A DNA stretch of 42,350 nt from a virus (Duplodnaviria > Heunggongvirae > Uroviricota > Caudoviricetes), in the IMG/VR virus record IMGVR_UViG_2636415673_000001, positions 1-42,350 of that record. One strand, written 5' to 3'. Position numbers and translations under genes: made by a program. Positions 24,238 to 41,020 of the stretch are shown here, piece by piece (position 1 is the stretch's first letter; each line of letters opens with the position of its first letter). The notes under the pieces were generated by a model, which was not told the DNA's origin, searched no databases, and saw only the letters and a program-made list of their open reading frames with translations.

Positions 24238-24479
24238 GTCTTACCCCCAATAAGGGGATTTGCTCTATTTAATTAGGAATAAGGTCGATTACTGATAGAA
24301 CAAATCCAGGCTACTGTGTTTAGTAATCAGATTTGTTCGTGACCGATATGCACGGGCAAAACGGCAGGAGGTTGTTAGCGCAGCCTCCTGCCACCCGCTT
24401 TCACGAAGATCATGTGTAGAAGGCCGCAGCGTAACTATCACTGATGAGTTCAGGATAGCCAGTGGCTACGGCTCAGTTA

Positions 24480-30298: not shown

Positions 30299-31159
30299 TC
30301 ACCTGTCGAAAAACACGTAGCCAGTTTTCGATACGGTGATTGCGGATGATGGTTTGGATTGTGGTTGAATGGTTTCTGGCTTTTCGTCGTTCCAGCGTTG
30401 ACCGTTCAGGTAGCTCGATGGTAACAACCTGTCGAATCCGAACTGCTTACCATTCCTGCATGCGATGTCTTCTGCCAACATCGTGGCAAACTCGCTTGCC
30501 GTACCCCTGGTAGTTTTACGCCATTCCCTGAACTGTGTTCTGAATGCCGAAGCTGCGTTTTTCTTCCCGGCTTTCCGCATGCCTGCACACCAGAATATTT
30601 CCTCGAATGCCTTGTCGGTTTCTTCGTGACGGTCAGGTGATTTTTCACACTCCGTCCGAACACTTTCGGACATAGTGTTTTTATTATTTCTTTTTTCTTT
30701 TGTAATAGTTTCTTTTGTGTGTCCCTGTTTTGGTGACAGCGCTGTCACCGTTTTGGTGACACTTTTTGTCACCAATGCAGTGACATTATCACCAGAGTAG
30801 TGACACCCTTCGATTTGCCATTCCTCGATGTTCTTGTTAGGCCCGATTTGCTGGCCTTCGCGAAGGATAACCTTCATCGCGATAAGCTCATTCTTGGCCT
30901 TGTTTACCTTCTGTCTTGGCAGCCTGGTAATTTGAGCTAACTGACTATCAGAGATGCGATCCATCTTTTTACCGTAGCCGTATGTTTTACGGCATATGGC
31001 GTGGGCAACCTTGCTCTGATTTTTCGTTAAATCTGCGCCGATAAGCTCTTCATACAGGGCATTTGCAAGACGGGTATAACCATCTTCAACTTCTGCCACA
31101 CGACGCTCCACAGGCCGTTGTGAAGGCCTTAAATGTGTTACGGTTGCAAGATTACTCAT
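30299..31159 (-). CDS. Replication initiator, O / P22 gp18-like
   Basis: 286 aa; N-terminal similarity to lambda O and P22 gp18; AAGGAG RBS; origin repeats inside gene. Confidence 0.85.
30676..30808. repeat. ori: Phage replication origin: AT-rich tract plus GTGAC-type iterons including an 18-bp perfect palindrome
   Basis: AT-rich 30676..30720, then ggtgacagcgctgtcacc (30732..30749) and about five more gtgaca/tgtcacc/tatcacc repeats at ~10-bp spacing, within the O-like gene. Confidence 0.7.
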
Positions 31160-31946: not shown

Positions 31947-32058
31947 ATGCCCTCCATAGTAACCATGAAACAATAATACGATATGTACTTTTAGAATGCA
32001 AACAAAAAAATACATCTTGTGCATGGATGGTTTTAGTACAGAGCGTAATAATAAGGGT
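31947..32058. promoter_or_regulatory. oR / pR / pRM immunity control region
   Basis: 112-bp divergent intergenic region; repeated gtac/tttag-containing imperfect palindromes shared with the pL region; operators not resolved. Confidence 0.6.
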
Positions 32059-32718
32059 ATGAAAATGAAATGGTATGAACTGGCTAGATCCAGAATGAAA
32101 GAACTCGGCATAACTCAAGAGAAGTTAGCTGAAGAGCTTGGTATGACGCAGGGTGGAATTGGTCACTGGTTGCGCGGATCTCGTCATCCATCTCTTGACG
32201 AGATTGGTGTGGTGTTTAAATACCTTGGTATTGATAACGTCTCATTCAACCACGACGGTACATTTTCACCTGTTGGCGAATACTCATCTGCCCCCGTTAA
32301 AAAACAATATGAGTACCCTGTTTTTTCTCATGTTCAGGCCGGGATGTTCTCGCCTGAGCTTAGAACCTTTACCAAAGGTGATGCGGAGAGATGGGTCAGC
32401 ACAACCAAAAAAGCCAGTGATTGTGCGTTCTGGCTTGAAGTTGAAGGTAATTCCATGACCGCGCCAACAGGATCCAAGCCAAGCTTTCCTGACGGGATGT
32501 TAATTCTCGTTGACCCTGAGCAGGCTGTTGAGCCAGGTGATTTCTGCATAGCCAGACTTGGTGGTGACGAGTTTACCTTCAAGAAACTGATCAGGGATAG
32601 CGGTCAGGTGTTCCTACAGCCACTAAACCCGCAATATCCAATGATTCCATGCAATGATAGCTGTTCCGTAGTAGGGAAAGTTATCGCCAGCCAGTGGCCT
32701 GAAGAGACATTTAGTTAA
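32059..32718 (+). CDS. cI: CI repressor: non-lambda N-terminal HTH domain fused to lambda-type S24 autoprotease C-terminal domain
   Basis: C-terminal ~130 aa match lambda cI ([20 protein letters not shown]...), N-terminal ~90 aa do not; start 32059 or 32065. Confidence 0.9.
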
Positions 32719-32749
32719 CAGCCTCACAACTCTAAAACACACAACAATA

Positions 32750-32778
32750 ACCCGACCTTAGCGTCGGGTTTTCTTTTT
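32750..32778 (+). terminator. Intrinsic terminator after cI
   Basis: acccgac-ctta gc-gtcgggt hairpin followed by TTTTCTTTTT. Confidence 0.75.
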
Positions 32779-32819
32779 CCAAAATATAAACCCATTAAAT
32801 ACAAAGCGTTATAAAAAAC

Positions 32820-32890
32820 TAATTATATTTAGAACATTTTGTATTGACTCGATAAAGTACAAATCGTACTATTTAGCCATCAGCAGGACG
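32820..32890 (+). promoter_or_regulatory. pL promoter with oL operators
   Basis: ttgact at 32844..32849, -10-like gtactat ~32867..32873; downstream sequence matches the lambda pL leader into nutL. Confidence 0.65.
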
Positions 32891-32911
32891 TACTAACCAC
32901 CATGAAGGTGA

Positions 32912-32942
32912 CGCTCTTAAAAATTAAGCCCTGAAGAAGGGC
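32912..32942 (+). promoter_or_regulatory. nutL: nutL (boxA + boxB)
   Basis: boxA cgctctta 32912..32919; boxB gccctgaagaagggc 32928..32942, as in lambda nutL. Confidence 0.9.
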
Positions 32943-33052
32943 AGCATTCAAAGCAGAAGGCTTTGAGTAGCGCGAAATGCAGCTGCAAGACAGCAACCGT
33001 GGAGATAAGCATCACGGCGCGTTACTCAAAGCTAACTGACAGGAGAATCCAG

Positions 33053-33379
33053 ATGGATGCACAAACACGCCGCCGCGAACGTCGCGCAGAGAAACAGGCT
33101 CAATGGAAAGCAGCAAATCCCCTGTTGGTTGGGGTAAGCGCAAAACCAGTTAACCGCCCTATTCTCTCGCTGAATCGAAAACCGAAATCACGAGTAGAAA
33201 GCGCACTGAATCCGATAGACCTTACGGTGCTGGCTGAATACCACGAACAGATTGAAAGCAACCTGCAGCGTATTGAGCGCAAAAATCAGCGCACATGGTA
33301 CAGCAAGCCACGCAGTGAAATAGGTGTGACTTGTGTTGGTCGCCAGAAAATGAAATTAGGCAGCAAACCACTTATTTGA
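33053..33379 (+). CDS. N: Antiterminator N
   Basis: 108 aa matching lambda N (MDAQTRRRERRAEKQAQWKAANPLLVGVSAKPVNRP...); AGGAG RBS. Confidence 0.95.
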   Translation: MDAQTRRRERRAEKQAQWKAANPLLVGVSAKPVNRPILSLNRKPKSRVESALNPIDLTVLAEYHEQIESNLQRIERKNQRTWYSKPRSEIGVTCVGRQKMKLGSKPLI

Positions 33380-33387
33380 GGTGAGAT

Positions 33388-33858
33388 ATGACAAAATCAT
33401 GGAGCGTACCTTTTCCTGAATCAGAAACTGAACATGATGGAATGCCTGTTTTCTGGAGATTCCAGGCGACAGTTGAAGAAGATGGGATAAAAATATTCGC
33501 ACTTCAATATATAGCTTTTCATCAGACAGAGCATTATGCATGGTTGGTTCCTGCGCATTGGATTGTTAATTTTAAACCAGCACCAAATCAGTGGTTACAG
33601 GAATGGAAACAAAGGAGAAATAGATATGCAATTAAGAAAGTAGCAAAAAATGCAGAAAGATCTTTTGCATTCCCAACGAAGAAACTTGCCATTGAGAGTT
33701 TATTGCGCCGGAAGAAATACCATTTAATGAGAATCAAACAAGATTTGGCTGTTGTATCAACTCTTGTTGATGGGATGAAGAATATTGATACATCAACACC
33801 AGATATTGAATATAACTTTGGGCACAACCAAGAAACAGAAAATTGGGTATTTTATTAG
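33388..33858 (+). CDS. AT-rich hypothetical protein (moron) immediately downstream of N
   Basis: 156 aa; GAGG RBS; visibly AT-rich codon usage; followed by stem-loop and terminator; no family recognised. Confidence 0.6.
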   Translation: MTKSWSVPFPESETEHDGMPVFWRFQATVEEDGIKIFALQYIAFHQTEHYAWLVPAHWIVNFKPAPNQWLQEWKQRRNRYAIKKVAKNAERSFAFPTKKLAIESLLRRKKYHLMRIKQDLAVVSTLVDGMKNIDTSTPDIEYNFGHNQETENWVFY

Positions 33859-33872
33859 TACGAGTAAGCACT

Positions 33873-33900
33873 GTGTATTCATTCCAACGAGTGAATACAC
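33873..33900 (+). other. Stable stem-loop without U-tract
   Basis: 9-bp stem gtgtattca/tgaatacac with 9-10-nt loop, 15 nt after the moron stop. Confidence 0.4.
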
Positions 33901-33962
33901 GGAGCAATGTCGCTCGTAACTAAACAGGAGCCGACTTGTTCTGATTATTGGAAATCTTCTTT

Positions 33963-33987
33963 GCCCTCCAATGTGAGGGCCTTTTTA
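33963..33987 (+). terminator. Intrinsic terminator (tL1-like)
   Basis: gccctc-caatgt-gagggc hairpin followed by CTTTTTAT. Confidence 0.7.
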
Positions 33988-34052
33988 TATGCATACCAAT
34001 AACGCTTCACTCGAGGCGTTTTCGTTATGCAATCAAACAGAAGGAGCATCCT

Positions 34053-34223
34053 ATGCAACAGTTCGCTATTGCAGGGGCGGCATCGGTTCGCCCTTTCAAC
34101 CCGATTTTATCGGTGCAGCATTCACGAAAAAATATTTTAACCGGAGCAGACTTTAAACAACCTCGCGTTAAGAGCTTGCTGGATCGTCTTGTTGAGTTTC
34201 TGAATCAAAAGGTACAGCCATGA
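34053..34223 (+). CDS. CIII-like small protein (putative FtsH inhibitor)
   Basis: 56 aa; AAGGAG RBS; loose resemblance to lambda CIII (MQ.FAIAG...L.D.L..LNQ); assignment tentative. Confidence 0.4.
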   Translation: MQQFAIAGAASVRPFNPILSVQHSRKNILTGADFKQPRVKSLLDRLVEFLNQKVQP

Positions 34224-34384
34224 AAAAACCAACTTACGAGGAACGGGAAGAAGCCCTGAAAGAGCTTAGAAGAATGGCTTTCGCCAGACGCACTAACTCT
34301 CACAACTGCGGCCCATTTCAGTACTCTGATTTATGCGAGGACATCATTGAGGTAACTCAACTGATTAAGGTCGTTAAGCAATGA
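34220..34384 (+). CDS. Small hypothetical early protein
   Basis: 54 aa; ATGA-coupled to upstream ORF. Confidence 0.4.
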   Translation: MKKPTYEEREEALKELRRMAFARRTNSHNCGPFQYSDLCEDIIEVTQLIKVVKQ

Positions 34385-34539
34385 GCATTGCGGATACATG
34401 GTCAGACGAAGAATTCATTCGTCAGATGAAAGATTTAATCGGTAACGAAGGAGATATTCATGTCACTTGCAACCACAGTGAAGGAGAGCAAGTTACAGAG
34501 ACGCATGTACACACAGAAAGCTCTCTGGTATCGCCATAA
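34381..34539 (+). CDS. Small hypothetical early protein
   Basis: 52 aa; ATGA-coupled. Confidence 0.35.
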   Translation: MSIADTWSDEEFIRQMKDLIGNEGDIHVTCNHSEGEQVTETHVHTESSLVSP

Positions 34540-34640
34540 TGGCGACCGCGAAGGAATGCGGGTATGCCTTAATTTGTCCCGAGTCGAAGTATTAAATCAG
34601 CGTTATTTCCTTGGGCCATGTCCATTCTGAGAACAATCAT

Positions 34641-35246
34641 ATGAGCAAAGAATTTTACGCAAGACTGGCAGCTATTCAGGAGAATCTGAACGCGCCAAAG
34701 AATCAGTACAACTCATTCGGTAAATATAAATACAGAAGCTGCGAAGACATTCTTGAAGGCGTTAAGCCGTTACTGAATGGCCTGTTTTTATCAATCAGCG
34801 ATGAAGTTGTGTTGATTGGTGATCGGTATTATGTGAAAGCCACGGCAACTATTACCGATGGCGAAAACAGTCATACGGCAACCGCTCTTGCACGAGAGGA
34901 AGAAAGCAAGAAAGGAATGGATTCTGCACAAGTTACGGGAGCCACAAGCTCTTATGCACGCAAGTATTGCCTCAATGGTTTGTTCGGCATTGATGATGCG
35001 AAAGATGCAGATACCGACGAGCATAAACATCAGCAGAACGCAGCAGCAAAGCAATCAAAACCATCACCTACACCTGAACAGGTTCTAAAAGCATTCACTG
35101 ACGCAGCATTGCAGAAAAACACCGTGGAAGAGCTTAAACAGGCGTTCGCCAAAGCGTGGAAGATGCTCGAAGGCACACCGGAGCAGCACAAAGCGCAGGA
35201 CGTTTACAACATCAGACGAGACGAATTAGAAGGAGCTGCTGCTTAA
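34641..35246 (+). CDS. erf: Erf single-strand annealing recombinase
   Basis: N-terminus MSKEFYARLAAIQENLNAPKNQYNSFGKYKYRSCEDILEGVKP matches P22 Erf. Confidence 0.9.
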   Translation: MSKEFYARLAAIQENLNAPKNQYNSFGKYKYRSCEDILEGVKPLLNGLFLSISDEVVLIGDRYYVKATATITDGENSHTATALAREEESKKGMDSAQVTGATSSYARKYCLNGLFGIDDAKDADTDEHKHQQNAAAKQSKPSPTPEQVLKAFTDAALQKNTVEELKQAFAKAWKMLEGTPEQHKAQDVYNIRRDELEGAAA

Positions 35247-40932: not shown

Positions 40933-41005
40933 TGATTTTATTTTGACTGATAGTGACCTGTTCGTTGCAACAAATTGATAAGCAATGCTTTTTTATAATG
41001 CCAAC
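40933..41005. promoter_or_regulatory. lambda attP P' arm (Int arm-type and IHF sites)
   Basis: Matches remembered lambda P' arm; arm-type motif ctgatagtgacctg. Confidence 0.8.
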
Positions 41006-41020
41006 TTAGTATAAAAAAGC
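41006..41020. other. attL: attL core (15-bp lambda common core)
   Basis: ttagtataaaaaagc, identical to 568..582; int-proximal junction. Confidence 0.9.

Follow-up and report, generated by a model that had tools for sequence, protein, structure and literature searches.

The closest described counterpart of the locus analysed here is the small RNA PreS (LPR1) of phage lambda, which is among the first lambda trans-acting sRNAs shown to reprogram the host. In lambda, it is found as an Hfq-dependent RNA of ~88 nt together with a processed form of ~68 nt, is made only in the lytic cycle and has its 3' end at the terminator tL2a; of its targets dnaN and alaS, the first is activated at the level of translation and the second is repressed (Silverman et al. 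2024, bioRxiv 10.1101/2024.10.31.621285). A plasmid-borne LPR1 that starts at +1, and therefore does not include the hairpin H0 described below, is functional (bioRxiv 10.1101/2024.10.31.621285). For delta-lpr1, phenotypes in plaques and in DNA replication are on record. The release of PreS from the pL transcript is undescribed in the 2024 version of this preprint, in which the main text uses none of the terms hairpin, stem-loop, RNase E and RNase III, no statement is made on how the PreS 5' end arises, and the supplements hold no RNase-mutant or RACE data for LPR1; H0 is a candidate mRNA/sRNA junction element. In the literature searched, nothing relevant was found on older mapping of RNase III or other processing sites in the pL operon, and the prophage sRNAs HnrS and Pas of two recent papers come from other loci.

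Two further kinds of described element resemble parts of this locus. The sRNAs MicL, CpxQ and ArcZ are derived from 3'UTRs by RNase E processing, and PreS is like them in being an Hfq-type sRNA from the 3' part of a longer transcript, in sharing the terminator of its parent, in having a further short form, and in carrying stem-loops (H1 and H2 here) 3' of the presumed cuts. In the case of MicL, RNase E takes its position from tandem stem-loops on the 3' side of the cut, and the sequence upstream is dispensable (Updegrove et al. 2018, bioRxiv 10.1101/341578). The MicL model differs from the present locus in having no conserved hairpin that abuts the cut on its 5' side, and the link of PreS to RNase E is by analogy. 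The other kind is the REP element, which downstream of malE acts as an intercistronic or 3'-terminal mRNA stabiliser. Like these stabilisers, H0 is a stable stem-loop without a U-run that follows soon after a stop codon (3-14 nt in many loci) and that would become a 3' end after cleavage; unlike them, it has no sequence relation to REP and is linked to a downstream sRNA, and its protective effect is putative. In addition, the record of phage Sf6 (NC_005344) carries a 'boundary sequence', bsq4, which covers exactly the block from hairpin to terminator (L168 701-813). This label is descriptive and refers to conserved DNA at module joints, whereas the block is read here as a putatively expressed RNA module that consists of a hairpin and an sRNA.

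The DNA analysed (hereafter the window) is the whole 42,350-nt stretch of a Caudoviricetes genome in IMG/VR (IMGVR_UViG_2636415673_000001). The + strand of the region of interest is the early-left (pL) operon of a lambdoid phage, as shown by the N gene (Table 1), which a cI-like gene precedes. No terminator lies between N and the 156-aa ORF that follows it. This ORF is a homolog of L0079 according to the annotation of 933W, yielded no domain in a Pfam search, and is one of several alternative genes found upstream of H0. The window is without ea10 and ssb, and 33981-34052 joins the PreS terminator straight to 933W pre-cIII sequence, an arrangement common to many viral contigs.

Table 1 Features of the PreS region in the window, stem types of H0 and related loci in other records.
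Feature	Position, arms or loci	Strand	Basis or occurrence
N, antitermination protein with lambda-type arginine-rich N-terminus	33053..33379	+	Pfam PF11438 N36, 1.5e-26; phrog_271, N-like
156-aa ORF ('moron' of the initial annotation)	33388..33858	+	phrog_1636, 2.7e-112, no function assigned
H0 hairpin	33873..33900 (RNA pairs 33871-33902)	+	Sequence, fold, five stem types, covariation
PreS/LPR1 homolog, 85 nt counted from +1 through the T-run	33902..33986	+	Lambda alignment; preprint primers for +1
H1 mini-hairpin, GAGC-AAUGUC-GCUC, at the PreS 5' end	33902..33915	+	Paired in every aligned sequence
H2 internal PreS hairpin, AACAGG/CUUGUU	33923..33940	+	RNAalifold, compensatory changes
PreS seed, identical to lambda	33937..33953	+	Stretch deleted in lpr1-delta-seed (primers P970/P971)
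Intrinsic terminator, tL2a homolog, PreS 3' end and Hfq-binding module	33963..33986	+	Stem 33963-33980, T-run 33982-33986
Second terminator-like hairpin, before the cIII-like gene	34001..34020	+	Terminator scan; 933W counterpart between ssb/ea10 and cIII
cIII-like ORF	34053-34223	+	phrog_550
H0 stem type A	GTGTATTCA/TGAATACAC		Window, lambda, 933W
H0 stem type B	TATAGCAGA/TCTGCTATG		P22, APC_JM3.2
H0 stem type C	AATGCGGA/TCCGCATT		ES18
H0 stem type D	AATGACCA/TGGTCATT		
H0 stem type E	TATCGACT/AGTCGATA		
Diverged PreS homologs	L170 701-800 (Salmonella phage 34, species P22); L171 701-800 (ES18); L174, L178, L183, L189, L232		
Lambda-identical contigs	L124, L129, L132, L134, L138, L139, L144, L148, L151, L153, L154, L157, L158, L161		

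The core of H0 is a perfect 9-bp inverted repeat on the + strand, GTGTATTCA (33873-33881) and TGAATACAC (33892-33900), whose arms are separated by the 10-nt spacer TTCCAACGAG. As RNA, the hairpin forms 14 contiguous pairs out to C33871-G33902, U.G pairs included, with a CAAC loop. Its folding energy on the + strand is -20.2 kcal/mol against -5.6 ± 2.2 kcal/mol for shuffled sequences (z -6.7; 0 of 200 shuffles equal it), and the minus strand of the region has a weaker fold (-14.6 kcal/mol). The strong, perfect 9-bp stem-loop that the initial annotation had noticed in the sequence is thus borne out by both the sequence and the fold energy. It had been placed 15 nt after the stop codon of the 156-aa ORF and about 60 nt before a terminator; the stem does lie closely 3' of the stop (TAG, 33856-33858), with 14 nt rather than 15 in between, and the terminator scan puts the start of the intrinsic terminator 62 nt past H0. 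The view that H0 has no U-tract and is unlikely to terminate also stands: GGAGCAAUG, which has no U-run, directly follows the hairpin, and H0 is not among the sites called by the terminator scan. An intrinsic terminator was accordingly rejected, given also the A+U-rich stem and the lack of a U-tract in all five stem types described below. A boxB hairpin has a 5-bp stem and a GNRA-like pentaloop and lies near boxA, upstream of N; H0 was rejected as the boxB of a nut site because its stem length and loop differ and it is located downstream of N. An Rfam scan of 32700-34700 with E up to 10 returned only noise (E above 2), and nothing over 33860-33990.

Perfect stems of at least 9 bp with a loop of 3-12 nt occur seven times in the 42-kb window against 1.9 expected from first-order Markov random sequences built on the base-transition frequencies of the window. 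Since such a stem is not rare in 42 kb, the significance of H0 comes from its conservation and covariation rather than from its existence. The six further perfect inverted repeats of at least 9 bp lie at 486-508, 2769-2789, 24363-24392, 30753-30775, 32178-32204 and 40989-41018.

H0 and the next ~110 nt have near-identical counterparts in the ral-ea10 interval of lambda and in the L0079-ssb interval of 933W, and H0 by itself is identical in lambda. As judged by this alignment, the sequence behind H0 is a homolog of the Hfq-dependent lambda sRNA PreS/LPR1: 33902-33971 is identical to lambda base for base, 33972 in the terminator loop is A here and G in lambda, and the tail after the terminator stem is CUUUUUAUAU in the window and GAUUUUUUAUCU in lambda. 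The two loci share the hairpin, the sRNA body from +1 to the terminator loop including the seed, the kind of terminator, and the location in the pL operon, where both follow N on its strand. They differ in that the window has the 933W L0079-type ORF for ral and no ea10, in the one base of the terminator loop, and in the tail. Within the seed, M1 (CTG, 33941-33943) pairs with dnaN and M2 (GAA, 33951-33953) pairs with alaS (P838/839, P888/889; bioRxiv 10.1101/2024.10.31.621285). The first ~20 nt of PreS, including H1, hardly vary, and this also holds for loci that were collected with just the 27-mer of the seed; the invariance of H1 is partly due to selection of the loci, as the collecting pattern for many of them spans H1. 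H2 has the general form AACNNG/CNNGUU and covaries between body types, with A-U replaced by G-C at one pair and A-U, G.U or G-C present at another.

Going downstream from N, the scan meets no terminator-like site before the one that closes this block, and this terminator had been described as tL1-like. It is a tL2a homolog instead: Sf6 (NC_005344) has the aligned terminator labelled 'homology to phage lambda; tL2A', and tL2a is identified in the preprint as the 3' end of LPR1. The map of the window is corrected on these two points, in that the terminator is tL2a and at the same time the sRNA terminator, and the ~60 nt between H0 and the terminator, taken for a spacer, are by homology the body of a functional sRNA, PreS/LPR1. 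A 31-aa ORF at 33907-34002 (MSLVTKQEPTCSDYWKSSLPSNVRAFLYAYQ), which has GGAG just upstream, inside the sRNA, is probably no gene, as its ATG is ATA in all P22-type homologs. Among 5,426 complete E. coli genomes, 2237 have the PreS module, and its copy number in a genome reaches six.

In lambda, +1 is placed at GAGCAATG (GAGCAATGTCGCTCG) by primers P810, P1103 and P969 (Table S5), and the homology arm for the full deletion ends ...GTGAATACACG (...CACTGTGTATTCATTCCAACGAGTGAATACACG) (bioRxiv 10.1101/2024.10.31.621285). The primers and the deletion arm indicate that the authors put the sRNA 5' end 1-2 nt past the hairpin and left the hairpin in place; as defined by them, PreS does not include the hairpin, which is undiscussed in the preprint. 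The window equivalent of +1 is G33902, the last base of the extended H0 stem. From +1 to the end of the T-run, lambda PreS has 87 nt, in agreement with the reported ~88 nt band, although +1 is placed by northern size and the authors' primer design and not by a nucleotide-resolution end map. For the initial annotation, the absence of a processed end at this position would have spoken against its proposal; an RNA 5' end is in fact placed here, by northern size and primer design, which leans towards that proposal. The promoter scan of the window found no + strand promoter-like site upstream of +1. A promoter of its own was rejected for PreS on this result, on the absence, by eye, of a -10/-35 shared across the five hairpin types, and on its lytic-only expression. 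PreS is seen only while pL is active.

The conservation of H0 was analysed in a comparison set collected by scans of viral contigs with a 27-mer of the PreS seed and a 19-mer of the P22-type 5' end, and from annotated phage records and other fetched loci. As a result, 253 out of 254 PreS 5'-motif matches with enough flank were found to have a hairpin ending 0-2 nt before GAGCAAU, and the sole hairpin-less match (L218) is a chance match without a PreS body. The lower stem of H0 exists in at least five unrelated versions (types A to E, Table 1). Compensatory flips also occur within types, for example in B' (TATAGCTGA/TCAGCTATG), as does an A-to-G change that yields a U.G pair. The stem has 14 pairs in type A and ~11 in types B-E, including two G.U; its three apical pairs (A-U, U.G and U-A) are nearly invariant, the eight pairs below them are freely replaced, and the loop has 4-6 nt. 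All H0 variants fold at -12 to -20 kcal/mol save two with a stem mismatch (-5.9 and -7.1 kcal/mol), and a U-tract after the hairpin is absent in all five types.

In a focused MAFFT alignment of 36 distinct sequences, with all types in one register, standard pairs fill 98.4% of the cells, a share that falls to 23-50% once the 3' partners are displaced by 1-3 columns, and 9 of the 12 H0 pairs are changed on both sides. The covariation score of this alignment is 0.544 against 0.131 ± 0.015 for shuffled alignments, none of which reached it (0/500), and RNAalifold independently predicted the same helix with a covariation term of -4.09 kcal/mol. The focused alignment was used because, in a wider MAFFT alignment, the H0 register was shifted and RNAalifold did not call H0. 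These comparative data show that H0 has been selected for its structure and not for its sequence, as a structured functional RNA hairpin would be. A G.U pair is conserved at columns 10-37 in 18 of the 36 sequences (all non-A types) and at columns 19-28 in 33 of them, and every one of the 42 unique variants folds more stably as + strand than as - strand RNA, showing that the selected molecule is the + strand RNA, namely the pL transcript, rather than a DNA palindrome or an antisense RNA.

The boundaries of homology indicate to which side H0 belongs. BLAST homology to lambda-type phages starts at 33868, the 5' foot of the hairpin (query position 8), and homology to P22-like phages starts exactly at 33902, that is, at +1 (query position 42). 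The same hairpin is located after ral in lambda, after L0079 in 933W and after other genes elsewhere. Type A is combined with three sRNA body types and at least three upstream flanks, and type B with three body types and two flanks. The type-A hairpin is present in 325 phage records, equal to the number with a lambda-type module at at least 95% identity, and among the loci examined neither the hairpin nor the sRNA was found alone. H0 is thereby shown to travel with the sRNA and not with any particular upstream gene. The initial annotation had suggested that H0 may control the gene upstream; with the same hairpin behind ral, L0079 and others, and lambda homology starting at the hairpin foot, a role specific to that gene looks unlikely. 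From the nearest upstream stop to the stem there are between 3 and 73 nt, a variation which also suggests no fixed relation to the upstream gene. Distances of 3-5 nt are seen in 30 loci of type A, in most of type B and in types C-E, the class of the window has 14 nt, and the ral class has about 44-67 nt.

The sRNA family also reaches the P22-like and ES18-like phages of Salmonella. Their PreS homolog has diverged (Table 1), with BLAST identity of 80-84% over the first ~55 nt; the 5' 20 nt and the covarying internal hairpin are kept, but neither the seeds (e.g. CUGGUUAAUCGAAAAAUCAUCCCUUGAUG) nor the terminators are the same, and a third body type is found among these homologs. The conservation survey in the preprint had an identity threshold of at least 92% (bioRxiv 10.1101/2024.10.31.621285), and the diverged Salmonella-phage variants seem to fall outside it. 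They probably have other targets. Moreover, Escherichia phage vB_EcoP-611R6 (L001 2100-2200), the closest relative of this part of the window, has a chimeric sRNA that consists of a lambda-type 5' part and seed up to GGAAAUC followed by a P22-type 3' part and terminator, showing recombination inside the sRNA gene.

Based on these results, we favour, with about even confidence, the reading that H0 is a junction or insulator hairpin between the upstream mRNA and the 3'-derived sRNA, and that PreS is cut at the 3' foot of H0. In this scheme, PreS lacks its own promoter, and an endonuclease would excise it from the long pL transcript at the 3' foot of H0. RNase E is the most plausible candidate and would, as with MicL, be guided by stem-loops that lie downstream of the cleavage site. 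The upstream mRNA (N and the 156-aa ORF here, ral in lambda) would then be closed at its 3' end by a stable hairpin followed by no more than 2 nt, and such a capped 3' end would resist 3'-to-5' exonucleases; stable hairpin ends with almost no single-stranded tail are poor substrates for PNPase, RNase II and RNase R. H0 may also keep the 5' domain of PreS from pairing with upstream sequence. Since the sequence upstream of MicL is dispensable, an action of H0 mainly on the upstream product is favoured. The tight, conserved spacing fits protection of the upstream 3' end, and insulation of the PreS 5' domain fits a module that is shuffled among many contexts. A role of H0 as a MicL-type determinant was rejected, because the determinants of MicL lie 3' of the cut and are not an upstream stem-loop; if the rules of MicL hold, H0 would not be needed for the cut, and its selective value would lie in the putative protection or insulation. 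The class that the initial annotation had suggested for H0, an element of RNA processing or stability, is still the most reasonable one for a strong + strand stem-loop without a U-tract, but the element is tied to the downstream sRNA PreS.

A weak point of the junction reading is the cut site itself. RNase E is reported to prefer RN|WUU, to which CG|GAGCAAU at +1 is, by eye, a poor match, and the linker between H0 and H1 is only 1-2 nt long, leaving little single-stranded RNA for RNase E unless H1 opens. Furthermore, a purely structural barrier would give no reason for the conservation of the apical A-U/U.G/U-A motif. One speculative and rather unlikely reading is that H0 is a dedicated cis-acting biogenesis element of the phage sRNA, whose apex would be read by a specific host or phage factor, whose lower stem would set the cleavage point, and which would couple PreS release to the upstream message. 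If this were true, the coupling could reach upstream translation where the stop is only 3-5 nt from the stem, and H0 would represent a 5'-flanking determinant of sRNA processing, a kind absent from RNase E models that use determinants 3' of the cut.

It is also doubtful, though conceivable, that H0 serves the sRNA only, without stabilising the upstream mRNA. It may determine where cleavage takes place, as a ruler or as a barrier to scanning RNase E, it may shield PreS from decay started upstream, or it may insulate H1, H2 and the seed so that they fold correctly in any context. The spacing of 0-2 nt to +1, strictly conserved across the five hairpin types, is in keeping with such a role, as are the reassortment of H0 with upstream genes while it is always linked to the sRNA, and the variation in the distance to the upstream stop. 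However, upstream sequences have no effect on the cleavage of MicL, and the function of the plasmid LPR1 without H0 indicates that H0 is unneeded for the folding and activity of the sRNA once its 5' end is given.

A cut by RNase III within the H0 stem, which would make the PreS 5' end near the stem base and part the mRNA from the sRNA, appears improbable. A structure-specific nuclease would suit a double-stranded RNA conserved for pairing and not for sequence; the type-A stem has 14 bp, and a northern band of ~88 nt cannot tell +1 from an end 2-3 nt inside the stem. Elsewhere in the pL RNA of lambda, namely in the N leader and at sib, RNase III does cleave. However, typical E. coli substrates of RNase III have about two helical turns, ~11 bp is the minimum, and stems of 11-14 bp are at the low end; types B-E, with only ~11 pairs of which two are G.U, amount to about one helical turn. 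The annotated +1 is at the foot of the stem and not inside it, and no rnc data were found in the literature searched.

That H0 acts on RNA polymerase as a U-less terminator or a pause hairpin, for example by slowing it before the sRNA and tL2a, is very improbable: a stable nascent-RNA hairpin ~60 nt before a terminator would suit this, but a U-tract follows none of the five types, the terminator scan leaves H0 uncalled, and PreS synthesis requires transcription through H0. We give equally little credence to a palindrome that works as DNA and not as RNA, be it a protein operator or a recombination 'boundary sequence', and to a chance hairpin, for although the Sf6 record names the whole block bsq4 and mosaic junctions are found at both of its ends, a DNA palindrome would have T.G mismatches at the conserved G.U pairs, every variant favours the + strand, and replacement of the whole stem with pairing kept argues against both a sequence-specific protein site and chance.

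The sRNA PreS/LPR1, the terminator tL2a and the mosaic boundary annotation are already known, and the hairpin sequence is present in lambda. New relative to the 2024 preprint is that the hairpin is, on the comparative evidence, a separately evolving, structure-conserved element fixed at the 5' boundary of the sRNA.

In addition, a scan of genome contigs with a 19-mer found no new hairpin types; the matches were lambda-identical contaminants, a few prophage copies in E. coli and Shimwellia, and chance matches (Ruegeria and others). The lambda-identical contigs (Table 1) are from assemblies of bacteria such as Pseudoxanthomonas, Shewanella, Bradyrhizobium, Kitasatospora, Neobacillus and Pseudomonas, several of them with low coverage, and in such unrelated bacteria they most likely represent contamination with lambda DNA. 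On the minus strand of the window, a sigma-70-like site at 33877-33849 (TACACA-17-TAAAAT) overlaps the 5' arm of H0 and faces the 156-aa ORF; it was rejected as a promoter because such sites are at chance level (2 found against 3.6 expected) and its flank is not conserved in lambda. Finally, the C-terminal half of the repressor gene at 31996-32718 appears to resemble that of lambda cI, and its N-terminal DNA-binding half does not; if the repressor is such a hybrid, it would combine a different immunity specificity with a lambda-type N.
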